Of a stretch of 37,906 nt of DNA, positions 5,258 through 26,491 are shown one piece after another (the first letter of the stretch is position 1; each line of letters opens with the position of its first letter). A model generated the notes under the pieces. That model was not told the DNA's origin. It saw only the letters and a list, made by a program, of their open reading frames with translations, and ran no database searches. This stretch comes from a virus: the UHGV virus genome UHGV-0206542. One strand, 5' to 3'. Both the position numbers and the translations under genes were made by a program.

Positions 5258-6106
5258 ATGAGCAAAAAACAACTTCCGGTGGCGCCGGCGGGTCGCCCCT
5301 GCGCGCGCGTTACCTGTGAAACATTACCGTCCGCACTGGACCGCTGGGACGGTGGGATCAAGGCGGCGACTACTGACGATAATACTATTTCTGTTTTTGA
5401 TGTTATAGGGCAGGACTACTGGGGTGAAGGGATAACAGCTAAACGTATTGCCGGTGCGCTTCGGGCGATGAACGGCGCAGATGTTACGGTGAATATCAAC
5501 TCGCCGGGTGGCGACATGTTCGAAGGTCTGGCTATTTATAACCTTCTCCGCGAATACGAAGGCCATGTAACGGTGAAGGTGCTGGGCATTGCCGCCAGTG
5601 CCGCCTCAATAATTGCGATGGCCGGGGATGATATTCAGATTGGCCGCGGTGCCTTTCTGATGATCCATAACTGCTGGTTGTACGCGATGGGAAACCGCCA
5701 TGACTTCGCTGAACTGGCGCAGTCACTGGAGCCATTCGATACCGCAATGGCTGATATTTACGCGGCGCGATCCGGCCTTGATATTGCCGCCGTTCAGAAA
5801 CTAATGGACGCCGAAAGTTATATCGGTGGCAGCGATGCTGTGGCGAAGGGACTGGCAGACAGCCTGCTTTCTGCTGATGCGGTCAGCGACGGCGACGAAT
5901 CACCTGCAGCTGCGCTTCGCAAACTTGATGCACTGCTGGCGAAAACAAATACCCCCCGGTCCGAGCGCCGGAAATTAATCAAAGCATTAACAGGTAACAC
6001 GCCGGGCGCTGTTACCGATCCCGATGGTAAGCCGGGCGCTGCCGAAGATATCAAACCTGAAACCCTCAATTCACTTGAAAGCGCTCTTGCGGCGTTAGTC
6101 AAATAA
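5258..6106 (+). CDS. prohead maturation protease (ClpP/S14-like)
   Basis: ClpP-like core INSPGGDMFEGLAIYN...GIAASAASIIAMAG...MIHN (Ser/His). Lies between portal and capsid. Confidence 0.85.
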   Translation: MSKKQLPVAPAGRPCARVTCETLPSALDRWDGGIKAATTDDNTISVFDVIGQDYWGEGITAKRIAGALRAMNGADVTVNINSPGGDMFEGLAIYNLLREYEGHVTVKVLGIAASAASIIAMAGDDIQIGRGAFLMIHNCWLYAMGNRHDFAELAQSLEPFDTAMADIYAARSGLDIAAVQKLMDAESYIGGSDAVAKGLADSLLSADAVSDGDESPAAALRKLDALLAKTNTPRSERRKLIKALTGNTPGAVTDPDGKPGAAEDIKPETLNSLESALAALVK

Positions 6107-10715: not shown

Positions 10716-11087
10716 ATGATAAAGAAAGCAGCTGTTGTTTTTACTGTAATGCTTTTAGGTGGCTGCGTTAGTGCGCCAGATAAGGCGGAGCTAAGCCGCG
10801 CCGATTATGGGAAGTTACCTGATAATTATCAGGAAATAATTAAAAATAGTATGTCGGCGCGCCTTAAGGACCCTTATTCTGCACGATATGATTTCAATGA
10901 ACCTTTCAAAGGCTGGTGCAAATCAGGGTTTACAACTTATTACGGATGGTTAGTTCCTTTTACTCTTAACGCTAAAAACAGTTATGGCGGTTATGTTGGT
11001 AATAAGTCTTATCTGTATCTTGTTAATCAAAATAGCGCCACTGACTATACCGCATCCTTCCAAGTCGGTGGGTGCGGTAAAAGTTAA
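10716..11087 (+). CDS. lipoprotein (moron inside tail module)
   Basis: MIKKAAVVFTVMLLGGC signal peptide with lipobox L-L-G-G-C. AT-rich relative to flanks. Own RBS gagggg. Terminator downstream. Confidence 0.6.
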   Translation: MIKKAAVVFTVMLLGGCVSAPDKAELSRADYGKLPDNYQEIIKNSMSARLKDPYSARYDFNEPFKGWCKSGFTTYYGWLVPFTLNAKNSYGGYVGNKSYLYLVNQNSATDYTASFQVGGCGKS

Positions 11088-11108
11088 ATTAGCCAAATCA
11101 TAAAATAA

Positions 11109-11132
11109 ACCTCGCTCCTGCGGGGTTTTTTA
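11109..11132 (+). terminator. rho-independent terminator
   Basis: cctcgctcctgcgggg hairpin followed by ttttttatt. Confidence 0.55.
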
Positions 11133-11150
11133 TTGCCTGGAGAAAATTCA

Positions 11151-13586
11151 ATGGCTGGCAAGTCCCTTGGTACGTTAACAATCGACCTGATCGCAAAAGT
11201 GGGTGGATTTGTTCAGGGTATGGACAAAGCCGAAAGATCTTCTCAAAAGTGGCGTGACCAAGTAAAAAAGGATGCTAAAGAGGTTAGTTCTTCAATCATT
11301 GCTGTGGGTGCTGCGGCGGCTACAGCAGCTGTTGGCATTGGTGCTGCTGGGTTAGCCATAGTTAAAAATACTGCACAGCAGGTTACAGAAGCTGATCGCT
11401 GGGCAAAATCTCTTAAAATGTCCACCCAGGATTTGTTATCCTGGCAATACGCTGCTGAACAAGCCGGTTTAACCGGTGACAACATAGCCGATATTTTCAA
11501 AGACATTAATGATAAGGTCGGTGATGCGGTCCTGAATAAATCAGGTGAGGCAGCTCAGGCGCTGGATACTTTGGGGCTTTCAGCTCAGAAGCTGGCTCAG
11601 CAATCCCCAGACAAGCAGCTGATGGCAATCAGTGAAGCATTACAGAAAATCCCCACTCAGGCCGGGAAAACAAATATTCTCGAAAGCCTGGGTAATGACC
11701 TGTCAAAAATGCTGCCGTTGTTCGACAACAACAACGAGAAGCTGAAACAGTTTATCCAGCTATCAAAAGATTTTGGTGTCGCACCACCGCAAGAAGATAT
11801 TGATAACCTTGTTAAGGTTAATCAGTTCTTTCAGGATATAGAGACTAGCGCCCGCGGTCTTAAAATGGAAATTGCTTCGGGGCTGGCTAAGGTTGACCTT
11901 ACACCATTGCAGGATGGGCTTGATGACATTCGTGACGTCTTCACCGATCCTGCTGTTCTTCAGGGGCTATCAGACCTGGTTGGTGAAGCCATAAGCCTTG
12001 CCGGGGTTGTGGGGCGTATTGCTGGTGGCCTGGGGGCCATTGCAACTTATACCCGCTCTCGTATCGGTGCTGTATCTGGTAATTATAACGCTGCTGATGA
12101 AAGTGATATTGCACAGCGCATTGAATTCCTTAACAAACGAGGGAATCAAAGTAAGGAACAAAAAGACGAATTAGAATTTTTAACTAAACGTCTTCAATTT
12201 CTTCGCGCGATAAAGTCAAGCATGACTCCGGAACAGGTAGATAGAGGAGCGAAAGGGCTTACCTCTCTACTTTCGGATCTTGGAATTGAGACTTCTAAAG
12301 ATAATGATTTTTCGTTGGGCAAAGGGGAGTCTAACCAGAATCAGCCAAAGACAAAACCAAAAAGCAATCCTTCTGACAATGCTTTCAAAAATAGACTGCT
12401 TGATTTACAAAAGCAAGCTGCCCTAATTGAAACGACTGGTAAAAAAACAGCCGAAGTTACCGAGCTTGAAAAGATAAACTTCGATATTTCCAGTGGGAAT
12501 CTTAAAAAATTAACAGAAGCACAAAAAGAGCAATTGAGAGATGCAGCGAAAGTTCTCGATTCCAAAAAAGAAGAGCTTCGGATAAATAAAGAAAATGCAA
12601 AGTTAGCTGAATTTGCATCTAATCTTGAACGCCAAAACAAGTTAATTAGACAGGGGCATGAAAGTGAGTTTGTTGGTCGTTATTCAGCCTCAAGAGAAAG
12701 AGGCAGGGCGCAAGAGTTAAATAGCATTCAGTTAGACTTTGAATCACAAAAAGAGGATTTATTAAAGCAATATCAATCTGGTGATATAACCAAGAGTTTG
12801 TATGATTCTGAAACATCAGCTTTGCAGGATGCTCTAAATCAAAGGCTTGAAATTCAGAAGGATTACTATAAGCAGCAGGATGAGATGCGTGGTGATTATA
12901 ACGCTGGGTTTATATCTGGGTTTACTGAACAAGCAACTGCTGCAATGGATTTGTATTCCACCATGCAACAGGTTGGTGCGCAAACATTTAGCAGCATGAC
13001 CGATATGATCGTTCAATGGGCCGAAACAGGTAAATTAAATGCCCAGGATTTTGCAGCAACGTTTATTCAATCTGTAGGAACTGCGCTATTGCAATATGCA
13101 GCAGCGCAAGTTGCCATGGCTGCATTGAATGCTTTCACCCAATGGATAGGGGTTCCTTATGTTGGTCCTGCTGTTGCACCTGCACAAGCAATAGCTGCGG
13201 CAGCTGCTGCTGGCGTGTTCATGACTGCTATCGGATCGGCGCTTCATGGACAGGCTCACGACGGTATCGACTCTGTGCCCGAAACAGGAACCTGGCTCCT
13301 GCAGAAAGGTGAGCGCGTTACGACAGCTAAAACCAGCGCAAAACTGGATGCTACTCTGGATCGAGTTGCAAACCAGTCAACAGGCGGCGGCGCGATTTAT
13401 TCGCCCACAATCAATATCCCCATCAATGGTAACCCTTCCGATGCAACTTTGGCGCTGGTCCGTAAGGCTGCAGATGAGGGGGCAGAAAGGGGATACCAGA
13501 AGGCGGTTAATTCAGTCGCAAGCGGTCAGGGTGATTTGCATAAGGCCTTGATGGGGAAAACTACCTCGGGGAGGAAAATTAGCTAA
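11151..13586 (+). CDS. tail tape measure protein
   Basis: ~811 aa. N-terminal hydrophobic and Ala-rich segments. Long coiled-coil middle (AT-rich 12.1-12.9 kb). Position after the G/GT chaperone. Confidence 0.9.
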   Translation: MAGKSLGTLTIDLIAKVGGFVQGMDKAERSSQKWRDQVKKDAKEVSSSIIAVGAAAATAAVGIGAAGLAIVKNTAQQVTEADRWAKSLKMSTQDLLSWQYAAEQAGLTGDNIADIFKDINDKVGDAVLNKSGEAAQALDTLGLSAQKLAQQSPDKQLMAISEALQKIPTQAGKTNILESLGNDLSKMLPLFDNNNEKLKQFIQLSKDFGVAPPQEDIDNLVKVNQFFQDIETSARGLKMEIASGLAKVDLTPLQDGLDDIRDVFTDPAVLQGLSDLVGEAISLAGVVGRIAGGLGAIATYTRSRIGAVSGNYNAADESDIAQRIEFLNKRGNQSKEQKDELEFLTKRLQFLRAIKSSMTPEQVDRGAKGLTSLLSDLGIETSKDNDFSLGKGESNQNQPKTKPKSNPSDNAFKNRLLDLQKQAALIETTGKKTAEVTELEKINFDISSGNLKKLTEAQKEQLRDAAKVLDSKKEELRINKENAKLAEFASNLERQNKLIRQGHESEFVGRYSASRERGRAQELNSIQLDFESQKEDLLKQYQSGDITKSLYDSETSALQDALNQRLEIQKDYYKQQDEMRGDYNAGFISGFTEQATAAMDLYSTMQQVGAQTFSSMTDMIVQWAETGKLNAQDFAATFIQSVGTALLQYAAAQVAMAALNAFTQWIGVPYVGPAVAPAQAIAAAAAAGVFMTAIGSALHGQAHDGIDSVPETGTWLLQKGERVTTAKTSAKLDATLDRVANQSTGGGAIYSPTINIPINGNPSDATLALVRKAADEGAERGYQKAVNSVASGQGDLHKALMGKTTSGRKIS

Positions 13587-14543: not shown

Positions 14544-14924
14544 ATGTTCAACCCTGATAAATACCGTTCAGTCACCTGGCTGAAGGGCGGGCGCGTATAC
14601 CCGCAACTCGACTGTTTCGGCATTGTGAACGAGATACGCCGCGACCTGAATTTACCCGTCTGGCCCGATTTTGCAGGGGTCACCAAAGACGACGGCGGCC
14701 TCGACCGGGAAGCGCGCAGGATGATGCTTACCCTTGAGCGCTGCGAACCCTGCGAAGGGGCCGGGGTGGCCTGTTATTCCGGGTCGACTGTCACCCACGT
14801 AGGGATCGTGGTCAGTATCGATGGTCTGCTGCATGTGGCGGAATGCAATCCGGGAACGAACGTCACCTTTCTGCCGTTGCCGCGGTTTAAGCGGCGATTT
14901 GTCAAAGTGGAGTTCTGGCAATGA
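14544..14924 (+). CDS. tail protein with NlpC/P60-like (gpK-like) Cys-His fold
   Basis: 126 aa. Cys...His pattern (LDCFGIV...THVGIVV...HVAECNPG) is reminiscent of lambda gpK / NlpC-P60 tail tip proteins. Confidence 0.55.
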   Translation: MFNPDKYRSVTWLKGGRVYPQLDCFGIVNEIRRDLNLPVWPDFAGVTKDDGGLDREARRMMLTLERCEPCEGAGVACYSGSTVTHVGIVVSIDGLLHVAECNPGTNVTFLPLPRFKRRFVKVEFWQ

Positions 14925-17900
14925 CCATTCGTTTTTACCCGTCCCGGCTTCCCGGTGAACCACTCGAAACGCATGAGCATGGTGTAACCAGTATTCGCAG
15001 CTGGCTGGTGGCAAATGTTGAAGGCTACGAGGATCGGGATGTCCCACCGCTGACCGTTGAGGTTGAGGGGCTGTTAATTCCGCCAGGCGAGTGGGCTAAG
15101 TGTGTGATTCGCCCTGATAGTGATGTCAGGCTTTATCCGGTTCCCTTCGGGCTGGAGGCAGCCACAATCGCGTGGATCGGCGTCGGTATCTCCGTTGCCG
15201 CTGCAGCCTATTCGCTGTTTATGATGAGCAACATCGATACGGGAGGCTATACCTCATCCACAGGGCGGAGTCTCGACCTGAACCCGGCAAAGGCGAATAC
15301 CGCAAAACTCGGTGATGCCATTCGTGAGGTTTTTGGCCGGGTGCGTATCTACCCTGATTATGTGGTGCAGCCGGTTACCCGGTTTGATGCCGCCGATCCT
15401 ACGAAAATGCGCGTCCAGATGCTGCTGTGTCTCGGCGTCGGTGATCTGATTTATACCAATGGCGATATCAGGGTTGGCAGTACGCCAGCTTCAACGCTAC
15501 CGGGATTCAGCAGCACCCATTACCCGCCAGGCGCGGACGTTTCCGGTGATGAGCGCAGCGAAAACTGGGTCAACTCCACCGAAGTGGGCGGGACGTCATC
15601 CGGCACCGGGCTGGATATGGCCCAGACGTCGCCGGACGCAGACGACATTATCGCAGACAGCATGACCGTATCCGGTTCGAGCGTAACGTTTACCGGGCTG
15701 GACACGGATGATGATGACGATAATGACGAGAACGATAACGCGCTGCCGCCCAGCTGGGTCGCCGGCGCTGTGGTCGAACTGAAAGCCCCGGCTAACTACC
15801 AGATCACTTCGGCGGCCGGATACAGCGTTATCGCAAGCCCGCTGCTGACGGAGATCGCGCCGGTAGTAGGTATGCCGGTGACGCTGGGGTTTAACTCTGT
15901 CGATTACGATCTGTTTATCGCGTCATATACCCCCGGTCAGGCTGCAGTGCCTGGCACCGGGGGGAGTGCGGCAAAACTCCAGGCCAGTGCGGCCCCGACC
16001 ACCTACGATTTTTCGACCAGCTCCAGCACGTTCACGATCACCTGGCAGGGGGTTACCTACCCGGTGTCGCTGGTTGCTAACTACGTCTCGATGTCGGGAC
16101 TGCTGGCGGCCATCACCGAGGGACTCACTGGCTCCGGCCTGGTTGCGCAGGACAACGGCGGCACCGTACTGATAACCGAGTCGGCCAGTCCGTTCGCGGG
16201 TGGGACGATCACGTCCTCTTCACTGCCTGCAGCTGTTTTCGGTGATGCCCCGGTTTACACCTCCGGCACGGCATCAACCGGCGGCAGCCCGGCGGTAACG
16301 GCGAATGTGACACTCGCCTATAACTCTGCCACGGGCACCGCATTCTCCGGGATGCCGGAGGGGGTGCAACGGCTTTCACTTGCTCACCGCGGGAATGAGT
16401 ACCGCATTGTCTCAGCTGACGGCACGACGGCGACGGTGGCGCGCCTGGTTTCCGGTGCCGTTGATGAGTCATGGCCGGGATTCACCGCCCGGACGATGAT
16501 CGACTATGATGCCACTGGTCTTAACGACACGCTGGGCTGGCTGGGGCCTTTCCTCGTATGCCCTGAGAATGAAGTGGTGGATGCATTCGAGGTGAATTTC
16601 TCCTTCCCGAACGGCATCTGTGGCTTTGACAGTAAGGGCAAAAAACGGATCCGCCACGTTGAGTGGGAGATTCAGTATCGCGTCTACGGTTCCGGATCGG
16701 GGTGGGTGAGTCACCAGGGAGTGTATGCGCTTAAAAACGTCAACGGGCTGGGATTCACTGAGCGGATCACTCTCAGCTCTCCGGGGCTGGTAGAAGTTCG
16801 CTGCCGTCGGCGCAATGAGCAGGGCTCAAACAACGCGCGAGACAGTATGTACTGGCAGGCGCTGCGCGGGCGACTGCTGACGCGCCCTTCATCCTATCCC
16901 GGCGTGTCGCTGATGGCGGTGACCGTTGAGACGGGCGGGAAGCTGGCGGCGCAGTCGGACCGCCGCGTAAACGTTGTGGCCACGCGGGCCTACGACTCAG
17001 GAACGGCCAGAACCATTTCGGGAGCGCTGCTGCATGTCGCGAACTCTCTTGGGCTGGAAATGGATGTCGACACCATCAACGCGCTGGAATCCGCGTACTG
17101 GACGCCACGGGGCGAAAATTTCGATTTCGCCACGGGCGACAGTATCTCGGCGCTGGAAATGCTGCAGAAGATTGCCAATGCCGGGAAGTCACGTTTTCTG
17201 CTGAGTGATGGCCTGGCGACGGTCAACCGCGAGGGGATTAAGCCATGGACCGGTGTGATCACTCCGCATGAGATGGTGGAGGAGCTGCAGAGCGGATTTA
17301 CCGTGCCCTCAGATGATGATTTTGATGGCGTCGACGTGACGTACATCAACGGGACTACCTGGGCGGAGGAGACCGTTAAATGCCGGACGCCAGACAATCC
17401 CACGCCGGTGAAAATCGAAAACTACAAACTCGATGGGGTACTGAATCAGGATCACGCCTACCAGATCGGGATGCGCCGCCTGATGAAATACCTGCAGCAG
17501 CGGGTGACGTTCCAGACCACTACCGAGCTGGACGCGCTGTGCTACAACACGGGCGATCGCATTGTGCTCACGGATGATATTCCGGGTAACAACACGATTT
17601 CCTGTCTGGTGGAGGCGATGACAACGGCGGGTGGCGTGACAACGTTCACCGTCACGGAGCCGCTGGACTGGTCTTTCGAAAATCCCCGAGCGCTGATCCG
17701 CTATCAGGATGGCTCTGCATCCGGGCTGATGGTGGTGAGCAGGGTGGGTGATTTTCAGCTGTCAGTCCCGCACCTGAGCGAGTTTGATGACCCGATGAAG
17801 GTTGACCTGTCGTCGGCAACCATCGAGCCGATCCGCCTGGTGTTCTGCGGCTCAACGCGCCACGTCTACGACGCCATTGTAGAGGAGATCGCCCCGCAGT

Positions 17901-17989
17901 CTGACGGAACATGCCAGGTCACCGCTAAAGAATACCTCGAATCATTCTATGCCTACGACGACGCTACATACCCCGGCGACGTCGCGTAA
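14921..17989 (+). CDS. tail tip / host-specificity protein (gpJ-like central fibre)
   Basis: 1022 aa, last big gene of the tail tip block. Internal hydrophobic segment and poly-acidic DDDDDNDEND linker. Confidence 0.7.
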   Translation: MTIRFYPSRLPGEPLETHEHGVTSIRSWLVANVEGYEDRDVPPLTVEVEGLLIPPGEWAKCVIRPDSDVRLYPVPFGLEAATIAWIGVGISVAAAAYSLFMMSNIDTGGYTSSTGRSLDLNPAKANTAKLGDAIREVFGRVRIYPDYVVQPVTRFDAADPTKMRVQMLLCLGVGDLIYTNGDIRVGSTPASTLPGFSSTHYPPGADVSGDERSENWVNSTEVGGTSSGTGLDMAQTSPDADDIIADSMTVSGSSVTFTGLDTDDDDDNDENDNALPPSWVAGAVVELKAPANYQITSAAGYSVIASPLLTEIAPVVGMPVTLGFNSVDYDLFIASYTPGQAAVPGTGGSAAKLQASAAPTTYDFSTSSSTFTITWQGVTYPVSLVANYVSMSGLLAAITEGLTGSGLVAQDNGGTVLITESASPFAGGTITSSSLPAAVFGDAPVYTSGTASTGGSPAVTANVTLAYNSATGTAFSGMPEGVQRLSLAHRGNEYRIVSADGTTATVARLVSGAVDESWPGFTARTMIDYDATGLNDTLGWLGPFLVCPENEVVDAFEVNFSFPNGICGFDSKGKKRIRHVEWEIQYRVYGSGSGWVSHQGVYALKNVNGLGFTERITLSSPGLVEVRCRRRNEQGSNNARDSMYWQALRGRLLTRPSSYPGVSLMAVTVETGGKLAAQSDRRVNVVATRAYDSGTARTISGALLHVANSLGLEMDVDTINALESAYWTPRGENFDFATGDSISALEMLQKIANAGKSRFLLSDGLATVNREGIKPWTGVITPHEMVEELQSGFTVPSDDDFDGVDVTYINGTTWAEETVKCRTPDNPTPVKIENYKLDGVLNQDHAYQIGMRRLMKYLQQRVTFQTTTELDALCYNTGDRIVLTDDIPGNNTISCLVEAMTTAGGVTTFTVTEPLDWSFENPRALIRYQDGSASGLMVVSRVGDFQLSVPHLSEFDDPMKVDLSSATIEPIRLVFCGSTRHVYDAIVEEIAPQSDGTCQVTAKEYLESFYAYDDATYPGDVA

Positions 17990-18067
17990 TACCCCATAAC
18001 AACCCCTTATTAACTCTTTTCGCACAAACCCTCGTTTGCGCGAACGCTATTTATTGGAGCAAAAAAT

Positions 18068-20494
18068 ATGGCTGAATTTGACCCGGCGCTGGGAAGTACT
18101 TCTCCGGCGGTGCTGCTTGATAATGCCAAACGGCTGGATGAACTGGTGAACGGCCCAGCCGCCGACGTCCCCGACCGCGCCGGTGACCCGCTTTATTCGT
18201 GGAGGGGTATCCATCAGAACCTAATCCCCCTGAGCAAACAATACATGACGCTGGCAGCGGCACAGGCTGATATTGCGAATATCCCGGACGGTAGCACAAC
18301 GTATGTTCGCAGCCCAGATGGCGGCACGCTGGCAGATGAGTACATCAATAACGGCGGTACGCTGGCGGCCACCGGCAGGTCGATGCCTTCGCAGGGGTAT
18401 ATCGACAGCCTGATTAAACCTGTCGGTATTGATTCACCGGTACTGTCTGTTGCCACAAAAGACGGTCTCTCGGTCTGTTCGTTTTACGTTAACGAGGATA
18501 CCGGCAATATAGAAATGATTGTTGACAAAATCCCCCAAGTGAACGCCGATATTTTGAACCTGGATGATGTTAAAGTCCTTGCATCGGAATCCGGTATCCT
18601 GTCTTTCCAGGATAAAAACGGACTTGAGGTCGAACTTGTTGACCTGATATCGCAGATTGCCAGCGATGTTGCTCCGTCATCGGTATCAGATGATGTCGTG
18701 TGGCTCAGTGCCGACGCTGCGGCGTATATCGCTCAGAACTACAACCTGAAACGACACCCTGTTGCCGTTATCAGGCAGGGACTCAACCTCTGGTTCGTCT
18801 ACGGGCAATCATTTACGCTTGGGACAGCCGCGAGAGGGGTTTTGACCCGCACTGATAGCGCACTCGGGAACCTGATGCTGGGCCAGTCGCCACGCGGGAG
18901 TAATCTCACCCCCAGCATTCAGAATGCGTTTGCCCCTGTTGGCGGAGAGAATAAATATTACCCCCTGCGTGAGCGTCGTCAGAAAGATGACGGCACAATG
19001 ACGGCGGATGACTCGACAGACAGCACCACGTTCGGTGAAACCATTCTATCCGGCTTGCTGGAAACTTTGAAAGATAATCACAACCGCAGCAAGGGGATGG
19101 AGAACGATACCGACGTGACGTTTGCCGGTTCATGCTGTGGCACTGTTGGCGTATCCATTACTGCGCTGAAGAAGCGGACGGCGGCTGACCCGGCAAACAA
19201 TGTCGTGGGCAACCCCACATTCGCAAACTCGGCGAGCGGCTGGAGCGCCGGGACGGTAACGCCCGTTGACGGCGTGAACGTTCTGTATTCTGGCTCGTCA
19301 TACGTTGAGAGCGCGAAATTCGACGTGACTGCCGGGGCTGTTATTGAGGTGACTGGTCGTGTTTATTTCCCTACGGCTATCACCGGGACGGTACGGGTCA
19401 ATATCAGATTTGACGGGCCGTCACTATCCAACGCTGCCGTTGCTGCTCTGACTATAACCAATCCTGCTGCCGGTTCAGTTTATCAGGTCAGTCGTCGTAT
19501 AACGGTTCCCACTGGCGCGACAACCGGCATTTACCAGATTGCTAAACCTTCCTCAGTTAGTACGGGGCTTTCCTCGCCATCAGCTATCCCGGTGACAGGA
19601 GACCAGTTAACTGATTATTACGGACGCTGGCTGAGTTGTCTGAATGGACACATGGAGGCAGCTAAAACTGCCGGATATGAGCAGATTCAGGTAGCAGGCA
19701 TTATCTGGATGCAGGGTGAAAATGATACGGGAGGCATGACAACATCTGAATACCTGGGCCATCTCAACGATATCAAATCATCCATGATTGCTGACTGTCT
19801 GGCAGCAACTGGCCAGAAAGAGCCGCCGGGATTTTTTGTATATCAGACGGGTGGAATGTATGCAGGGAACACGCAGAAACTGAACGTGCAAATGGCGCAG
19901 ATTGGCATCACTGACACAGACCGTGGTGCATTTTTCCTGCACAATGAGTTCCCGTACCCACGCCCTGCTAATCACTGGTACGCGAACAGCTATCGCTGGG
20001 CGGGGTGTCAGTACGCCAAGGAGATTTACCCCGTTGTCTCCGGGCTGAATTTCACCCCGTTCAAACCACTGGATGCGGTATACGACGGCAAGGCGATTTA
20101 CGTATCGTTCAGCCCGTTGTATGCGCCGCTTGTCAAACAGTCGTTCTATACCGGAACTGTGGTAACTGACCACGACGACTACGGCTTTACTGTGATTGAC
20201 GCGAACGGCACCCACTACGGCTCGGCTATCTCAGTCGAGATTGTGTCAGATACAGTGATGAAGATTACGCCACAATTCACCCCTTCTGGCACGCTAACTG
20301 TAGTGCTGGGCGATTCAAATCATGCCGGTGGCCACAACATCGCAGACAGCGATGACCAGGTTGCGCTGTATAAGTGGACCTACGAAACGGGGTACGGCCT
20401 GGATGCCGGGGAGAATATTGCCGCCCTGGTGAATAACGCCTACCCGCTGTTTAACCGCTCTGCTTCTTATTCAATTTCTGTGAGGGCTCTGTAA
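18068..20494 (+). CDS. tail fibre / tailspike with SGNH (sialate-O-acetylesterase-like) domain
   Basis: 808 aa. GQS block (FVYGQSFTLG) and WMQGENDTGG block match the SASA/SGNH esterase signature (GQSNM ... WxQGEsD). N-terminal ~230 aa likely a virion-attachment domain. Confidence 0.7.
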   Translation: MAEFDPALGSTSPAVLLDNAKRLDELVNGPAADVPDRAGDPLYSWRGIHQNLIPLSKQYMTLAAAQADIANIPDGSTTYVRSPDGGTLADEYINNGGTLAATGRSMPSQGYIDSLIKPVGIDSPVLSVATKDGLSVCSFYVNEDTGNIEMIVDKIPQVNADILNLDDVKVLASESGILSFQDKNGLEVELVDLISQIASDVAPSSVSDDVVWLSADAAAYIAQNYNLKRHPVAVIRQGLNLWFVYGQSFTLGTAARGVLTRTDSALGNLMLGQSPRGSNLTPSIQNAFAPVGGENKYYPLRERRQKDDGTMTADDSTDSTTFGETILSGLLETLKDNHNRSKGMENDTDVTFAGSCCGTVGVSITALKKRTAADPANNVVGNPTFANSASGWSAGTVTPVDGVNVLYSGSSYVESAKFDVTAGAVIEVTGRVYFPTAITGTVRVNIRFDGPSLSNAAVAALTITNPAAGSVYQVSRRITVPTGATTGIYQIAKPSSVSTGLSSPSAIPVTGDQLTDYYGRWLSCLNGHMEAAKTAGYEQIQVAGIIWMQGENDTGGMTTSEYLGHLNDIKSSMIADCLAATGQKEPPGFFVYQTGGMYAGNTQKLNVQMAQIGITDTDRGAFFLHNEFPYPRPANHWYANSYRWAGCQYAKEIYPVVSGLNFTPFKPLDAVYDGKAIYVSFSPLYAPLVKQSFYTGTVVTDHDDYGFTVIDANGTHYGSAISVEIVSDTVMKITPQFTPSGTLTVVLGDSNHAGGHNIADSDDQVALYKWTYETGYGLDAGENIAALVNNAYPLFNRSASYSISVRAL

Positions 20495-21237
20495 TGTCTG
20501 GACTACGTATCATTGTGGATAATAACGATATTCTGAAATATGCGAAGAGCGTGAACATTCCGGTCAGAAACGGCCTGGCTCGCGCGCTGCTGATGGTGGG
20601 AGATAACCCGGAGAAAAACTATGACGGGACCGGTAGTCTGCTGTCTAAAACGGGCAGTCCGACAAAAACGACTGACCACTCGTACACATTTAACAATGCG
20701 GAGTTTATTGATACAGGCTACTCGTGGGCTGGTGATATTACTATTTTTGCAGTGGCGAAACGCCGCATCTCGGCGCTTTCTGGAAAGGCTAAATGCTATG
20801 CTACCAGCTGGTTTTCGGGTAACGGCGGGGCTGTTGGCCTGCTGACGTTGCAGGACTCCAACCTGTACGCGCACGCTATCGCCAAAAACGCCAGCAACAC
20901 GTTCTCATTCCAGAACGTGACCATTCCGATAGCGTCCGGGTCGGATAACCCTGTCTGGCAGGCAATGGCGCAGCGTATCTCGGGTCGGGTGAATACCGGC
21001 TATAACCTCACGCAGAACCTGAACGCCACCCTGACGCTCGCTGACGGCCTGAGCTGGGCCACCCGCTCAGATGTGACAATCAAAATCGGGACGGGTAACG
21101 GTCAACAAAACTCTGCTATCGAGGATTGCGAGATTGCCTGTGTATTTATTTTCAGTCGCGCTCTGACAGATGCTGAGATGACTGCCATGCATGCCTGGAT
21201 ATCAGACTGGGGGAAAAACTACGGCCTGAGCATCTAA
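20494..21237 (+). CDS. tail-fibre-associated protein, unknown function
   Basis: 247 aa. taATG overlap with the tailspike gene. Asn/Thr/Ser-rich beta-like composition. Confidence 0.5.
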   Translation: MSGLRIIVDNNDILKYAKSVNIPVRNGLARALLMVGDNPEKNYDGTGSLLSKTGSPTKTTDHSYTFNNAEFIDTGYSWAGDITIFAVAKRRISALSGKAKCYATSWFSGNGGAVGLLTLQDSNLYAHAIAKNASNTFSFQNVTIPIASGSDNPVWQAMAQRISGRVNTGYNLTQNLNATLTLADGLSWATRSDVTIKIGTGNGQQNSAIEDCEIACVFIFSRALTDAEMTAMHAWISDWGKNYGLSI

Positions 21238-21378
21238 CAAATAACGAACGCATGTCAGAGTTATTTTTAAAGCTGGCATGCATTTATTAAGGTTATTACT
21301 CTTGGTTGCCTCTTTTAAAAGTGAATGGTTGATATAGTTTCGTGAGATAGCAATATGTCAATGATAATGACAGGGTGA

Positions 21379-22236
21379 CTAAAAAATAAGACTGGCGTTA
21401 GTGGTGAGTTTTCCCGCTATATAGAAATGGAAAAACTGATGAGTAAACATTATACTCATGGAGTTCTTTCCTATGCTATTGATAGGGCTACTTTGGACTT
21501 TTTTACTTATTAATATCATGCATACTGACATAATAATTGCCGCCATGAAGCTCACGAACGGTATCCCATATACTGATGCCTTCATGTCAAAACTCATCTG
21601 ATTTTGATGGTCAAAGTAAAACCAGATAAAAATAGTGCACAGCAGGAAGTAAATTATTGGCTTTATGTTTACCCTGGTTTTCTTGAAAAGATAACCGATA
21701 TACATAAATGGTAGTGCCTGTAATGAGACGGTGATATTTAGTGGAGATGGGTAATGGAGTAGATCACTGCATAAATATGACAAGCATAATGAAAATAAAG
21801 CAAGGGGGGCAGTGTATTTTAAACCAAATTTAGAGATTAGGACGTTAAGCGCTTGTTGAGCAAAAAAGAAAACAGTAACAAACCAGAATACGCCAGTTAT
21901 TCCAGAAAGAAGCTGCCCTCCATAAATGGCTCTTAAAACTACATTCAAGATTGAATGAATGTCATTGCCTTTGTATAAAAGCTCAGCGATAAGAAAGGCG
22001 GTAAATAATATAAGATATTTTAAATAAGGCACAAGCAGTCTTGATGACTTATTTTTGAGGTATTCTGAAACAGGCTTTGGGCTATATAGATAGCCACCAA
22101 GAAAGAAGAAGAACGGCATATGAAACAAAAATATCACATTGGATATTTTTTCATCTAACGTATGGCCTGCTACAACCAATATAATTCCAATGCCTTTTGC
22201 AGCATCAACCCAATCATAAGATTCAAAAGTTTTCAT
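21379..22236 (-). CDS. acyltransferase family 3 membrane protein (O-antigen/glycan O-acetyltransferase-like); lysogenic-conversion moron
   Basis: N-terminus MKTFESYDWVDAAKGIGIILVVAGH...FHMPFFFFLGGY is the acyltransferase_3 (OafA/Oac-type) signature. Multi-TM. Very AT-rich, on the opposite strand to the structural genes. Confidence 0.8.
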   Translation of the reverse strand: MKTFESYDWVDAAKGIGIILVVAGHTLDEKISNVIFLFHMPFFFFLGGYLYSPKPVSEYLKNKSSRLLVPYLKYLILFTAFLIAELLYKGNDIHSILNVVLRAIYGGQLLSGITGVFWFVTVFFFAQQALNVLISKFGLKYTAPLALFSLCLSYLCSDLLHYPSPLNITVSLQALPFMYIGYLFKKTRVNIKPIIYFLLCTIFIWFYFDHQNQMSFDMKASVYGIPFVSFMAAIIMSVCMILISKKVQSSPINSIGKNSMSIMFTHQFFHFYIAGKLTTNASLIF

Positions 22237-22488
22237 TGACTGACCAAGCGACAAGATGTAGTTAGCGCAATAGTAAAGCATTAACATCTAAATTTCAACC
22301 TGTTCACCTTGCAGTATAGGTAGGCCAACTACACGTTGAGAGGTATTACATGTATTAATATGATTTTTTTGATATTAATTAGTATAACATATGCGCATTG
22401 CATGTAAAAAATAGAACATTTAAGTTTCAACGAACTTCAATACCAGAATGATAGTTAATTGGCTATTTATCTATTCTGGTTGGGATGA

Positions 22489-22641
22489 AAAGATCGCGAT
22501 TTGGTTGGTCCTTACAACTCAGATGCAGGGGCAGCGCATGCATTCCTCAGAATGATGGAGAGCGGTGCAACCCGGCAGCAGGTGGCTGATGTGATAGGTG
22601 TAGACGTGAAAACAATCTACAAGTACCTCCCGGCGACTTGA
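22489..22641 (+). pseudogene. serine recombinase (Hin/Gin/Pin-type invertase) C-terminal HTH remnant, copy 1
   Basis: Translates as KDRDLVGPYNSDAGAAHAFLRMMESGATRQQVADVIGVDVKTIYKYLPAT*. Close to the Hin C-terminus (GRPRAINKHEQEQISRLLEKGHPRQQLAIIFGIGVSTLYRYFPAS). An in-frame stop lies immediately upstream, so there is no N-terminal catalytic domain. Confidence 0.6.
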
Positions 22642-22718
22642 AGACAAAGATTTCACTACTTTTCCTGATATGTTACGTTTGGCTTAATCAATTCATTCAG
22701 CTTTGAAAACAGTTTGGT

Positions 22719-23141
22719 TTGTTCGTGAACGGTAAGAAAACAATAAGTTTTGAGCAATTTTTAACTATTAACAGCAATCTTGTTTCCATCTCAGATACAT
22801 GGGCTGACTTGTGGGCGTTAATTTTTCACACGGGTTTAAGCGCTGGAAGGCTGCTGAGTATTCGATATGATGATATTGATGGTGACTTGATACTGATACG
22901 AAAACAGGGTCACCTGAAGGAGCTACGTGTTAAATCAACCCCTCCAGTGGAGGCGATGATTGCTCGTAGAAGAGAACGCTATCCAGAAGATGTTTATTTA
23001 TTTCAGAGTCATTCTAACCGTGTGAAGTACCATCGCCGGCCGGTCACTATAATTGCTTTCAACGCCGCTTTACGTCGCGCCGCTAGATCATTACCAGACG
23101 TTAACGTAAGCAGTAGTAGCGCGAGAAACATACCGGACTAA
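22719..23141 (+). pseudogene. tyrosine recombinase (integrase/Fim-type) internal fragment
   Basis: LIFHTGLSAGRLLSIRYDDIDGDLILIRKQGH...VYLFQS matches box I and the central part of tyrosine recombinases. The HxxR...Y C-terminal catalytic residues and the N-terminal domain are missing. Confidence 0.5.
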
Positions 23142-23156
23142 GCGCCTGTCCAGTAG

Positions 23157-23240
23157 CGTGTGGCCGATGTGACAGGCGTGGGAGTGAAGACGATTTACAA
23201 ATATTTGCCAGTACAATACGGCGATAAAAAATCCCCTTGA
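23157..23240 (+). pseudogene. serine recombinase C-terminal HTH remnant, copy 2
   Basis: VADVTGVGVKTIYKYLPVQYGDKKSP*. Nucleotide-level repeat of copy 1 (gtggccgatgtgacaggcgtgggagtgaagacgatttacaaatat). Confidence 0.55.
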
Positions 23241-23258
23241 GCAGGCACACTCAAGGGG
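23222..23258 (-). terminator. rho-independent terminator (minus strand)
   Basis: Hairpin ccccttgag-N8-ctcaagggg. On the minus strand it is followed by attttttat. ~275 bp downstream of the int stop. Confidence 0.5.
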
Positions 23259-23379
23259 AAAATACTACATAACATCATTGCTGTGTGCGTCTTTGCGCTC
23301 GTCTATCTTCCAAGAAGATGCCTAAAGCTTCCAGATATTTCTGGTCTGAGCAGTTAAAACATTGTGTCTGTGGCCTATG

Positions 23380-23445
23380 TGCTCGGAGGGGGTGAAGACG
23401 ATTTATAAAGATTTCCCGGATAGCATACTGCATGAGGCTGGGTGA
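23380..23445 (+). pseudogene. serine recombinase C-terminal HTH remnant, copy 3 (most decayed)
   Basis: ...SEGVKTIYKDFPDSILHEAG*. gtgaagacgatttataaagatttccc is near-identical to copy 2. Confidence 0.45.
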
Positions 23446-23533
23446 GGATTTGGTGTAAAAACCCACCCGGCAGCCGTATATAAGACCTGCCGAGTAGGCG
23501 TGGGCTCAGGCAGGGGGAGCACCGCTTTTGATT

Positions 23534-24640
23534 CTACTCAATGTTTTTGCTTTTCTGCAACTTATCGAATTTCTCATGCAGCGTTTTCGGAAATAGCTCA
23601 GTGTAAACCTGCCACAATATATTGAGTGAACGATGTCCTGTGACCTGCGCTACCTCTTCAATACTGAATCCTGCTTCAAACAGACGGCTTGCCCCTTCGC
23701 GCCGTAGATCGTGATACCTCAGATCCTCAATCCCCAACTCGTCACGAACGCGCCGATACATGGCTGTTATACTTTTCGGATTGAACGGGAATACCCTGTC
23801 GTCAACATGAGGCTGCATCGTCAATATCCTCCAGGCATCACCAAGTAAGGGCACTAACATGTGGTTGCCGATTTTTTTCCTCGGGTCCTTCCTGTCTCTA
23901 ACGATAACAGAACGCTGAATATCGTCCACATCCTCCCAGAGAAGACGACAAACCTCTCCAACCCTCATACATGTAAGTATGGAAAACATAAATATTTGAT
24001 GTAATGGCGCCCCGGTGTATGCCGTTTCGGCCTTAACTTTAAGAACTTCATACAACCGATCAACCTCGGTAGCACTTGCGCGGCGACTACGTCGCTGTGA
24101 AGGACCTGTGATCCCCATATTTCTCAACCAAACTTTAGCGTCAGATAATTCGTTCAAATTAGCTGGGGCGCCAAAAAGTGGCTTGGCCGCTTCAAGCGCA
24201 ACACTTAAATACGATACGTCCTGAGAGATAGTGGAAGGCGCAAGTCCTTGCGCTTTTCGGGTCTGGCAGTGCTCGATAATATGTTTTGCGGTCAAGTCCG
24301 TAAGTTTGATTTCTGCCAGAAAGGAACGGCCAAGGGTGCGGAGAGAGCTTCTTTTTGATGCGCCGAGCGTTATGTTTGGGTGGTTTTCATACTGAGTAAG
24401 CAGGTCACCAACAGTTATAACAGAGATCTCTTTCATCTCTTTTTCTGGCTCTGGGAGACCATGCTCTTCAATGTATGCTACACGTTTAGCCCCCCAGGAC
24501 TTCGCAAGGGTGTTCTTGGAGAAGGTTTTGTTCTCCCGGTGGACGTACTTACCATTTTGTTTAACGGCTACAGTACAGCGATAACGGGCAGTTCCATCAC
24601 TGCGTAATCTTTTCTCTATGGTGAAGAAAGCCATATCCAA
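23534..24640 (-). CDS. int: site-specific integrase (tyrosine recombinase)
   Basis: 368 aa. C-terminal HDLRREGASRLFEAGFSIEEVAQVTGHRSLNILWQVYTEL carries the R...HxxR...Y catalytic signature. N-terminal arm-binding-like domain. Confidence 0.9.
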   Translation of the reverse strand: MDMAFFTIEKRLRSDGTARYRCTVAVKQNGKYVHRENKTFSKNTLAKSWGAKRVAYIEEHGLPEPEKEMKEISVITVGDLLTQYENHPNITLGASKRSSLRTLGRSFLAEIKLTDLTAKHIIEHCQTRKAQGLAPSTISQDVSYLSVALEAAKPLFGAPANLNELSDAKVWLRNMGITGPSQRRSRRASATEVDRLYEVLKVKAETAYTGAPLHQIFMFSILTCMRVGEVCRLLWEDVDDIQRSVIVRDRKDPRKKIGNHMLVPLLGDAWRILTMQPHVDDRVFPFNPKSITAMYRRVRDELGIEDLRYHDLRREGASRLFEAGFSIEEVAQVTGHRSLNILWQVYTELFPKTLHEKFDKLQKSKNIE

Positions 24641-24932
24641 ACCTTAAACTGTGGGGTGCTGTGTGGGGTGCTGATAACAACATAATGGGTTAAAACGGGT
24701 GAAAATAGCCTAAAATATAACTGTCTAGATATCCAGTGTATTTTTATATATTACTGATATTGTTATATATATTTTATAGGGTCTGATTTGTGGCTACGAT
24801 TGAACATGAATGGAATAAATAATTAAAACAATAGGATGTGTTGTTTTGGGGTTCTATTGGGATGCCGAGTGATGCAAAAATAAAACCGGATGCTACATAA
24901 TGGGCGGCATCCGGAATTGAGTTACAGTGTCA

Positions 24933-25193
24933 CTAATGATCGCTTTTCATCTTTTCCAGGAGGTCCCGGCCTTTCTTCAACTGCGCATCAATGTGATTCG
25001 CAAGGTCTTGAATGTGGATCATGCGCGGTGCTTTTTGGCTTTCTGCGGCTCGGAAAGTTGGAATGGGGATCTCGCCCATCGCAGCGCGTTTTTCCGCTGT
25101 TGCCGGTTTCAGCCCAAAATACTTTTCGCATACCTGGCTGAGCGGAACCGTAGCAGACCCGTATTCGGCCATTAACAAAAACATCGTGTTCAT
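24933..25193 (-). CDS. xis: excisionase-like DNA-binding protein (PrtN/AlpA-like family)
   Basis: MNTMFLLMAEYGSATVPLSQVCEKYFGL...IPIPTFR...MIHIQDLANHIDAQ resembles the PrtN-type family found next to integrases. RBS gaggtga. Immediately upstream of int on the same strand. Confidence 0.6.
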   Translation of the reverse strand: MNTMFLLMAEYGSATVPLSQVCEKYFGLKPATAEKRAAMGEIPIPTFRAAESQKAPRMIHIQDLANHIDAQLKKGRDLLEKMKSDH

Positions 25194-25326
25194 CTTCACC
25201 TCATACCACAATCAGGCCACGACAGTGGCGCCACAATTCAAATTCTCTTTTCATGTCGCTAACTCCTTAAGAACCAGGCAATGGCGAAAGCACAACCGAC
25301 GGTGCAAAACGCTGTAGGCCAGTCCA

Positions 25327-25710
25327 TCACTTCGCCTCGACCTTGATGTCTGCGGCGCGAGGAATATTTACCTCAGCAATTCGCACGGTGGGCTTATACA
25401 TCTCGATAGCAGTTAGCCAGTCGGCTCCAGTCATCCGTTTTTCGGCATCACCATTAATCCACGTTACTGGCACCCCGATAGCCTTCAAGGCGATCTCAAT
25501 TTCGCCAGCAATCGCGCTCTTACCACAGCCAGTAAAACCGGCCACAGTAACCAATACCTCACCTCGGCCAACGGTGGAGGCGATGGACTCCAGCGTATTA
25601 GCGATTTCTTCCAGTTGTTCTACGCTCAAGCAAGACGCGCGCTCACTTGTCAGTGCGGCCATGTCAGCCCAATGGCGCACACGCTGCGTCAGATCAGTGA
25701 TATTACTCAT
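25327..25710 (-). CDS. small P-loop (Walker A) protein, unknown function
   Basis: 127 aa with GFTGCGKS (GxxGxGKS) Walker A. No other recognisable domain. Confidence 0.5.
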   Translation of the reverse strand: MSNITDLTQRVRHWADMAALTSERASCLSVEQLEEIANTLESIASTVGRGEVLVTVAGFTGCGKSAIAGEIEIALKAIGVPVTWINGDAEKRMTGADWLTAIEMYKPTVRIAEVNIPRAADIKVEAK

Positions 25711-25931
25711 CGCTTAGCCTCCCTGATCAGATGTTTATAGGCCCGCAGCGCGTGATGTGTCTTTCCGCTTAAGAGCGTTTTCATAATGAAAAAACCGCTT
25801 CTCTGGCTGGTCATTTCAGTCGTGAGAAGCAACGCTACATCAACCGCCCGGTTGTGCCGGCGGAACTCAAAGACAGTGCTGGTTACCGTAATAACTGAAA
25901 CCGATCCTTGATCGTTAAATTCGATTTTCAT
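25707..25931 (-). CDS. hypothetical early protein
   Basis: 74-aa ORF, 4-nt overlap with the downstream gene (coupled). Confidence 0.4.
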   Translation of the reverse strand: MKIEFNDQGSVSVITVTSTVFEFRRHNRAVDVALLLTTEMTSQRSGFFIMKTLLSGKTHHALRAYKHLIREAKR

Positions 25932-26491
25932 GGTTGACGGTTCTCCCCCTTAAAATAATTATCACGGCAAGGCATAACGACCAGCTCAGGGTTTCCGTAC
26001 ATGCGGTTGATATGCTCATTAAATTGGAACCGTACTGCGTCGAACTCACCTGATGGACGAAGCTGAACAGGGACAAACTTTTCTTCACGTCCAAAAATCT
26101 TTGCCGGATAGCTCAGGTATTCCGCCTGGATAGCTGGGCTAACGCTAAAGTCCCGTGTTTTCGGGATGACGCGCTCCAAGTCAGGGAAGCGTCCACTCAG
26201 TAGCTTAATGCCAGTAATGGACAGGCGATTCTGGTGCTGGTCACGATGAATTGCGATCGGCTCCTTATTGAAGATCAGCTCCGTTGTTTCCGCCTTGACT
26301 GGCACGCAGCCTTCAAACTGGACGATGATATTTTTCTTCGTCCTGATTCCATGCTGCATACGCAGTGCTACATGACCGTTGGTTCCCTCAATGTATTTCG
26401 GGGTGATATGGACTCCGCACAGATAGTAGCGGGCATCATTTTTTGCAACGCACACCAGAGCGGCTCGGATCAGCTTTGAAGGTATGATCAT
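25928..26491 (-). CDS. beta sliding clamp (DnaN)-like truncated protein
   Basis: DARYYLCGVHI..IEGTNGHVAL and ITGIKLLSGRFPDLERVIPK match DnaN domain II (VRYYLNGMLFETEG..LRTVATDGHRLAV; FTSKLVDGRFPDYRRVLPK). Only ~1.5 clamp domains are present, in 187 aa. Confidence 0.55.
   Translation of the reverse strand: MIIPSKLIRAALVCVAKNDARYYLCGVHITPKYIEGTNGHVALRMQHGIRTKKNIIVQFEGCVPVKAETTELIFNKEPIAIHRDQHQNRLSITGIKLLSGRFPDLERVIPKTRDFSVSPAIQAEYLSYPAKIFGREEKFVPVQLRPSGEFDAVRFQFNEHINRMYGNPELVVMPCRDNYFKGENRQP

Follow-up and report, generated by a model that had tools for sequence, protein, structure and literature searches.

The closest described systems to the locus analysed here are the Pin/Gin/Cin/Hin tail-fibre invertases, such as e14 pin, Mu gin and P1 cin. 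In temperate Klebsiella and E. coli phages of the present type, the tail-fibre module closes with a Pin/Hin-type serine invertase gene, and int and the attachment site come directly after it. Klebsiella phage KPP5665-2, the closest sequenced relative, has an intact DNA invertase that directly adjoins a different integrase; right upstream of the invertase, on the opposite strand, lie two tail-fibre genes. We analysed the interval 22440-23533 of the virus genome UHGV-0206542, whose full stretch of 37,906 nucleotides (nt) is called the window throughout; it is the genome of a temperate siphovirus of Klebsiella type, arranged in phage (attP) order. Three segments of this interval, termed copies 1 to 3, are homologous to the C-terminal helix-turn-helix (HTH) domain HTH_7 of the tail-fibre invertases. 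Unlike the described invertase systems, the window has neither a catalytic domain, nor an inverted tail-fibre repeat, nor a second fibre cassette; three 3' stubs remain. Most probably, the tail-fibre/invertase module was replaced serially through recombination with its anchor in the invertase gene, and the previous 3' stub stayed behind each time.

Two further kinds of system resemble the array in part. Phages e14 and 21 integrate in icd, where the prophage sits at the 3' end of a protein-coding gene and supplies a replacement end. As in the array, direct repeats of a gene 3' end with different tails result; here, however, the repeats do not lie at prophage ends, no element stands between them and the real attachment site is in abgT. 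That temperate phages and prophages exchange DNA by relaxed homologous recombination is well established (PMC3945230), and the model of serial replacement fits this mechanism. The mosaic scars left by such relaxed or homology-facilitated exchange, as viewed in the modular theory of phage evolution, share with the array the use of short, diverged homologies at module boundaries as crossover points. They differ from it in that the shared linker of the array is formed by the 3' end of a single particular gene, and repeated one-sided events have piled up as many as three tandem stubs with conserved spacing in many prophages. In the literature searched, which included no search aimed at invertase stubs specifically, no published description of the stub array was found.

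The interval holds the following features:

22540-22641, plus strand: copy 1, about 33 codons and a stop codon, tail KTIYKYLPAT; matches invertase residues 153-181 at 83% (tblastn)
22725-23141, plus strand: ORF138, an intact, conserved open reading frame (ORF) of 138 amino acids (aa) with a GTG start at 22725
23146-23240, plus strand: copy 2, tail KTIYKYLPVQYGDKKSP followed by a stop codon
23232-23259, minus strand: GC-rich hairpin with a 12-pair stem and a T-run, tail TTTTTTATCG, found by terminator scan
23263-23368: conserved spacer X, natively found downstream of the copy-2 invertase, collinear past invertase 3' ends in the related loci L016, L017 and L008
23369-23445, plus strand: copy 3, ending in GVKTIYKDFPDSILHEAG and a stop codon; the most decayed copy, marking the junction with the int module
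23446-23533, minus strand: int 3' untranslated region with a degenerate hairpin at about 23461-23495

A nucleotide profile made from the 3' ends of 52 distinct intact invertases matched the window exactly three times (nhmmer), at 22543-22631 (E-value 1.1e-21), 23146-23209 (9.5e-13) and 23371-23417 (7.4e-6). The degenerate pattern GTNAARACNATHTAYAAR, which covers the VKTIYK codons, likewise has three plus-strand matches in the 37.9-kb window (22606, 23184 and 23392) and none in 100 shuffled sequences. In a self-BLAST, copies 2 and 3 share 78% over 51 nt, and copies 1 and 2 share 77% over 44 nt. Pfam HTH_7 (PF02796) recognised copy 1 with 26 bits, above its gathering score of 23.8, and part of copy 2 with 17.6 bits, below that score. 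Copy 3 alone gave no HTH_7 match and was recovered as an invertase remnant through the nucleotide profile and through better-preserved orthologous copies, which read LVADVIGVGVKTIYKYFPAG followed by a stop codon in L015 and KTIYKYFPDSILHEAG in L112. The stretch of invertase sequence kept upstream of KTIYK measures about 65 nt in copy 1, 40 nt in copy 2 and 25 nt in copy 3, and copy 3 carries an indel. The Resolvase catalytic domain (PF00239) was found nowhere in the window, where tblastn with two intact invertases matched residues 153-181, 163-181 and 171-180 only; an in-frame stop codon lies upstream of copy 1. The three segments are confirmed as C-terminal HTH remnants of serine invertases in increasing decay.

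This much had been read from the letters alone in a first-pass annotation, whose description of three plus-strand, progressively decayed HTH remnants, repeated directly at the nucleotide level and, in copy 1, detached from any catalytic domain, stands; the similarity to HTH_7 that it expected of a profile search was found for copy 1. Its segments hold as well, with corrected edges: the homology of copy 1 begins at about 22540 instead of 22489, and that of copy 3 at about 23369 at the nucleotide level. A 10-nt match, ACCCGGCAGC at 23465, was considered as a fourth stub and rejected; it is one arm of the hairpin in the int 3' untranslated region. Inspection by eye revealed no hix/gix-like dyad symmetry in the repeat, which therefore does not represent a crossover site for an invertase. 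The stubs are relics without coding function.

To place the stubs among their relatives, IMG/VR was scanned for the motif, which returned at least 120 loci, and architectures were assigned by script; the counts given here and below refer to the 120 loci listed, and individual loci carry L numbers. An invertase alone was seen in 25 loci and a stub alone in 22. Three stubs separated by 578 and 208 nt, the spacing of the window, occurred in 13 loci, and an intact invertase in place of the first stub at the same spacing in 12, the remaining loci falling into smaller architecture classes. The three-copy array with spacings of 578 and 208 nt is common in Klebsiella and E. coli prophages. Five phage records as well as 45 E. 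coli genomes carry window positions 22542-23417 as a module of about 97% identity, and its left edge falls inside a Pin-like invertase gene or pseudogene in the loci examined.

Each type of tail was also followed in intact genes. The copy-1 tail KTIYKYLPAT ends 16 intact invertases and 35 stubs, whereas the copy-2 tail KTIYKYLPVQYGDKKSP (LPVQYGDKKSP) ends 3 intact genes and 50 stubs. The tail KTIYKYFPAG, which takes the copy-3 position elsewhere, ends 5 intact invertases and 32 stubs; the window's own copy-3 tail, KDFPDSILHEAG, was seen as a stub only. It differs by an indel from the tail KTLYKYLPSKGTI, followed by a stop codon, found directly beside the same int module in L013, L136 and L071. 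Copies 1 and 2 differ in 12 codons, 10 of them by synonymous changes only, which indicates that they diverged as coding sequence in separate functional alleles and not through local duplication and decay. By this comparison, the stubs derive from three invertase alleles. A 42-aa chimeric query matched only proteins of up to 74 aa, and the intact invertases with the copy-2 tail were found through the loci instead. In the protein database, at least 136 clusters of 23-74-aa proteins are named 'HTH domain-containing' or 'Hin recombinase, partial', almost all of them from Klebsiella.

Intact counterparts of copies 1 and 2 are found in related loci. L112 carries an intact 188-codon invertase ending in copy 2, followed after 206 nt by copy 3. 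In L016, from K. quasipneumoniae, the same copy-2 sequence ends a longer invertase ORF cut by the contig edge and is followed by copy 3, int and a truncated abgT; this locus is collinear with window 23160-23700 at 96%. The gap between the copy-2 invertase and copy 3 measures 206/208 nt in L016 and L112. In L133, L072 and L070, which match window 22545-24634 at 98% identity, an intact invertase of 182-192 codons ends in copy 1 and is followed by 578 nt that include ORF138, then by copy 2, 208 nt, copy 3 and int. Given this identity, the loss of the invertase 5' part in the window must be recent. For copy 1, the proposal of a deleted Pin-type tail-fibre invertase module thus proved right.

The upstream region of L133 was read as well. 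It contains an invertible pair of alternative tail-fibre cassettes in opposite orientation, whose N-terminal segments form an inverted repeat (5427-5805 and 10825-11221) that matches window 17954-18395, with window 18019-18395 matching in both orientations. No tail-fibre inverted repeat was found in window 14900-23600, which holds a single fibre cassette. L133 keeps a live tail-fibre inversion switch that is dead in the window.

How could such a stack arise? In a region that otherwise varies, no sequence but the invertase is well conserved, and the invertase would serve as a crossover anchor. A tail-fibre/invertase/cargo module arriving from another phage would be joined on one side by a crossover in or upstream of the invertase gene, while the second join, near the 3' end of the resident invertase, would be illegitimate or use very short homology. 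The 3' end of the old invertase would then survive as a stub downstream of the newcomer. We infer the following order. The int-proximal invertase would have come first, with copy 3 as its remnant and the oldest stub. It would have been displaced by an invertase with the tail VQYGDKKSP, bringing its terminator and spacer, of which copy 2 is the presumed remnant; this second state, a copy-2 invertase followed by copy 3, is still seen in L112 and, cut by the contig edge, in L016. A third invertase, with the tail LPAT and accompanied by ORF138, would in turn have displaced the second, and the resulting order of copy-1 invertase, ORF138, copy 2, copy 3 and int is still seen in L133, L072 and L070. 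In the lineage of the window, a recent deletion would finally have removed the 5' 80% of the newest invertase, leaving copy 1; the second tail-fibre cassette as in L133 is absent, and a low-GC acyltransferase moron would have come to occupy its place and that of the invertase 5' part. Being direct repeats of about 50 nt shared with live invertases, the stubs also offer landing pads for further homologous or unequal exchange.

The boundaries of the stubs bear on the kind of join. They were set by ungapped extension against individual intact invertase genes, since a method accepting any allele overestimated stub lengths and was dropped. Across the loci surveyed, left boundaries fall into at least 25 junction classes, lying 1 to more than 165 nt upstream of KTIYK, and this scatter favours illegitimate or short-homology joins over one fixed site-specific crossover. 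The left edge of copy 1, at about 22540, belongs to a class of 61 nt with the flank AGCGCATGCATTCCT, seen in the window alone among the surveyed loci, and adjoins the acyltransferase moron. Copy 2 begins 5-19 nt past the stop codon of ORF138. In other loci, one constant left flank, spacer X, precedes at least six different copy-3 tails and cargos, the latter being int, small ORFs or a retron reverse transcriptase. Copy 2 is a hybrid in L013, and in L017 a copy-1-type tail takes the copy-3 position. Such hybrid copies and reassorted tails show the copies to be real crossover points.

Related loci also carry cargo next to the stubs, namely a retron-type reverse transcriptase, umuDC and an AAA_15/OLD-like pair (L001 4084-5568; L015 7311-12417; L054 632-3957). 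The largest cargo among the loci listed is a stretch of 4.3 kb in L054, comprising umuDC and one further ORF without an integrase, between an intact invertase and a stub. The junction between the tail-fibre/invertase module and int/att looks like a hot spot for morons and defence genes.

The ORF between copies 1 and 2 had been described by the first-pass annotation as an internal fragment of a tyrosine recombinase at 22719-23141. The ORF was confirmed, whereas its reading as a decayed fragment was not. Its family, ORF138, comprises more than 150 clusters from Klebsiella, Raoultella and E. coli, with lengths of 136-144 aa and identities from 99% down to 60%. Pairwise ratios of nonsynonymous to synonymous substitution rates (dN/dS) are 0.11-0.19, at dS of up to 1.9 and without indels. 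With its near-constant length and these low ratios, ORF138 is a gene under purifying selection and no debris. In Klebsiella prophages it usually lies directly downstream of a serine invertase gene. K. michiganensis has ORF138 after an intact invertase with no stub following, and bracketing by repeats is therefore not obligatory.

The profile matches of ORF138 are PHROG 19751 (E-value 4e-46) and the integrase family PHROG 1 (9e-9), and its score against Pfam PF00589 is 13.4 bits, below the gathering score of 27.1. An AlphaFold2 model had a predicted local distance difference test (pLDDT) score of 76 and a predicted template modelling (pTM) score of 0.74. All top 50 Foldseek matches in the PDB were tyrosine recombinases, through their catalytic domain, with a template modelling score (TM-score) of about 0.7 on the query; the fold of ORF138 is predicted to be that of a tyrosine-recombinase catalytic domain. 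The nearest complete relatives in a profile search are single-domain tyrosine recombinases of about 185 aa, and only a short, weak alignment with the window's own integrase was obtained (hhalign). With these small recombinases of PHROG 216 (P0276, P0278), ORF138 shares the fold, the motif RRR..YP.D.Y.FQSHSNR.K and an alignment from the N-terminus to the box II Arg, but it has neither Arg I nor the box II His, and the final ~48 residues, which hold the His/Tyr nucleophile segment, are missing. The Arg I position is occupied by Ser/Gly, according to a weak hhalign alignment (E-value 0.32), and the box II His is replaced by Ser. The protein ends 4 residues past the box II Arg and has no Tyr nucleophile, whereas the ~185-aa relatives continue with ...LNHSS..T.RYIG. 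Missing both Arg I and the Tyr nucleophile, it cannot catalyse recombination. ORF138 is a C-terminally truncated, catalytically dead relative of small tyrosine recombinases.

The attachment site lies outside the interval, 1.3 kb from the stubs, at 24800-24807, and the integration target is abgT. The relevant features are:

24650-24673: two copies of the candidate arm-type repeat TGTGGGGTGCTG
24800-24807: attP core TTGAACAT, 8 bp, between int and the PrtN-type excisionase gene
24847-24855: candidate arm-type repeat TGGGGTTCT

All four att sequences were recovered and share the core:

attP, window: GCTACGA-TTGAACAT-GAATGGAAT
attB, empty abgT of K. pneumoniae ATCC 13883 (L140): CTCCAG-TTGAACAT-CGCCACG
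int-side prophage junction, L013 and L016: GCTACGA-TTGAACAT-CGCCACG
xis-side prophage junction, IMG/VR contig L141: CTCCAG-TTGAACAT-GAATGGAAT

The last of these was predicted first and then found; L141 consists of abgT at 100% identity followed by window 24789-25964 at 99%. The core sits in a stretch of 35% GC. The Klebsiella lysogens L013 and L016 break into abgT at window position 24807 (junction 24807/24808), and in both of them the interval 22440-23533 stays contiguous with int inside the prophage. Insertion in abgT is also seen for an E. coli prophage whose int is 95% identical and whose two ends are formed by int and the PrtN-type gene; its homology to the window covers 23533-24808 on one side and 24844-25233 on the other. 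In E. coli as in Klebsiella, int homologues occupy the prophage end adjoining abgT. Since int and the PrtN-type excisionase gene flank attP, they come to lie at opposite prophage ends. The intS and torI genes of KplE1 flank attP in the same manner and land at opposite ends of the prophage, and the window resembles phages of this type in its arrangement of int and excisionase gene. A tRNA scan and Rfam gave no match in the interval or the window, which excludes a tRNA-type attachment site. The abgT gene has already been reported as a phage attachment locus in E. coli (PMC11893012). The window shares this target with the abgT-integrating coliphages of the mEpimmI group (PMC11893012) but has a different backbone, that of a Klebsiella siphovirus related to KPP5665-2.

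These results bear on where integration has taken place and on whether it built the array. The attP core had been expected within the ~1 kb of the interval; beside the 3' end of int, copy 3 or its surroundings would be the core. Such a position would resemble that of lambda, in which attP lies just downstream of int, and homology with unrelated prophages does break at 23381, 23417 and 23533. Yet int and xis stand at opposite ends of lysogens, phage-host junctions fall at 24807/24808 in both E. coli and Klebsiella, and the empty abgT together with the L141 junction fixes the core. The interval, moreover, travels with int inside the prophages L013 and L016, and mapping of attL/attR in lysogens, which the first-pass annotation had suggested, led to abgT and not to the interval. 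The four att sequences refute an attP within the interval. Serial site-specific integration is a different proposal, by which phages or satellites with tyrosine integrases entered the 3' end of an invertase gene, each bringing a replacement end, so that copies 1/2 and 2/3 would be attL/attR pairs and ORF138 the remnant of an integrase. Direct repeats of about 50 nt are in the usual size range of att identity blocks, the copies differ in their C-terminal tails as would be expected of replacement 3' ends, a recombinase-derived ORF between copies 1 and 2 is directed towards copy 2, and copies 2 and 3 start at almost the same point of the invertase. The gaps of 0.5 and 0.2 kb, however, hold nothing but the dead ORF138 and a terminator, and none of the surveyed loci listed has an integrase-bearing element between copies. 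ORF138 is not decaying, occurs without a downstream stub in K. michiganensis and is devoid of Arg I and the Tyr nucleophile; stub boundaries spread over at least 25 positions; and the sole intact integrase here uses abgT, with attP at 24800. Taken together, this makes serial integration into the invertase 3' end very unlikely, although it had been one of the two origins first suggested.

Another possibility is that the stubs are kept for a function, as binding sites, small ORFs or a regulatory RNA, or with ORF138 as a platform for cargo capture. The array of 578/208 nt is widespread and 95-98% conserved, ORF138 is selected and physically tied to the stubs, and in related loci the sequence past copy 3 varies in its cargo (retron reverse transcriptase, umuDC, OLD-like genes). 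Stub conservation is, however, no higher than that of the flanking module, and copy 3 gathers indels and frameshifts in several independent versions. Rfam has no match in the interval, the stub ORFs show no convincing start codon or ribosome-binding site, and ORF138 is also found without stubs; a retained function is improbable. In a related and similarly doubtful proposal, the invertase 3'-end repeats, possibly with ORF138, would serve as a platform of cargo accretion, i.e., as portable homology cassettes of about 50 nt on which morons and defence genes are stacked between the tail-fibre switch and int/att. ORF138 might bind or regulate the repeat sites or the neighbouring invertase. Serial replacement of the module remains the preferred explanation, and several points weigh against it. 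No recombination event was directly observed, and the proposed order is based on parsimony and the extent of decay. The invertase codon at which copies 2 and 3 start (V-A-D-V; window 23146-23160 and 23369-23381) is almost the same in both despite different left flanks, which random breakage does not predict; this could reflect chance among many junction classes, unequal crossing-over, or hint at a more specific process. The recombinase-derived ORF138 stands exactly between two copies, and a part in the rearrangements is possible. Among the early-left ORFs, Pfam recognised no phage recombinase.

The surroundings of the interval comprise the following genes and regions:

14921-17989: J, preceded by the terminase, head and tail genes
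18068-20494: SGNH tail fibre
between the SGNH tail fibre and the acyltransferase moron: a 247-aa ORF
21150-22500: region around the acyltransferase moron, GC 33-39%
21379-22287, minus strand: low-GC acyltransferase moron gene (Acyl_transf_3)
22270-22408: AT-rich stretch beside the moron, with divergent promoter-like sites
23534-24640, minus strand: int, intact tyrosine integrase of 368 aa (Pfam Phage_integrase, E-value 5e-19)
24933-25211, minus strand: xis, PrtN-family excisionase-like gene (Pfam PyocinActivator, E-value 9e-26; PHROG 1300 excisionase, E-value 3e-34)
beyond the PrtN-type excisionase gene: early genes

A shift in GC at about 22500 marks the boundary of the low-GC moron, and a distant search of a phage collection with the moron region gave no match. 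At the other side, the hairpin at 23232-23259 overlaps the last codons of copy 2 and is kept together with it in L001, L002 and L014-L017; it is probably an intrinsic terminator of leftward int transcription, as predicted from its stem and T-run. The int 3' region is conserved with the int module, from 23432 in L013, L016, L136 and L071 and from 23462 in L074 and L066. L074 has a perfect hairpin, CCCACCCGGCAGC..GCTGCCGGGTGGG, of which window 23461-23495 is a degenerate version. The working elements of the interval are ORF138 and this predicted minus-strand terminator for int.

The interval is a stack of evolutionary scars, a case of ordinary phage mosaicism, and contains no working recombination site. 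The corrected position of attP matters for the annotation of prophage boundaries in Klebsiella, and the short ORFs named 'HTH domain' or 'Hin recombinase, partial' in Klebsiella genomes are explained as stubs left by turnover of the tail-fibre/invertase module. ORF138 emerges as a widespread, selected and catalytically dead derivative of tyrosine recombinases and is a candidate for experiment. The array is a clear example, and one that can be dated, of temperate phages exchanging receptor-binding and cargo modules through one-sided homology at a conserved gene.

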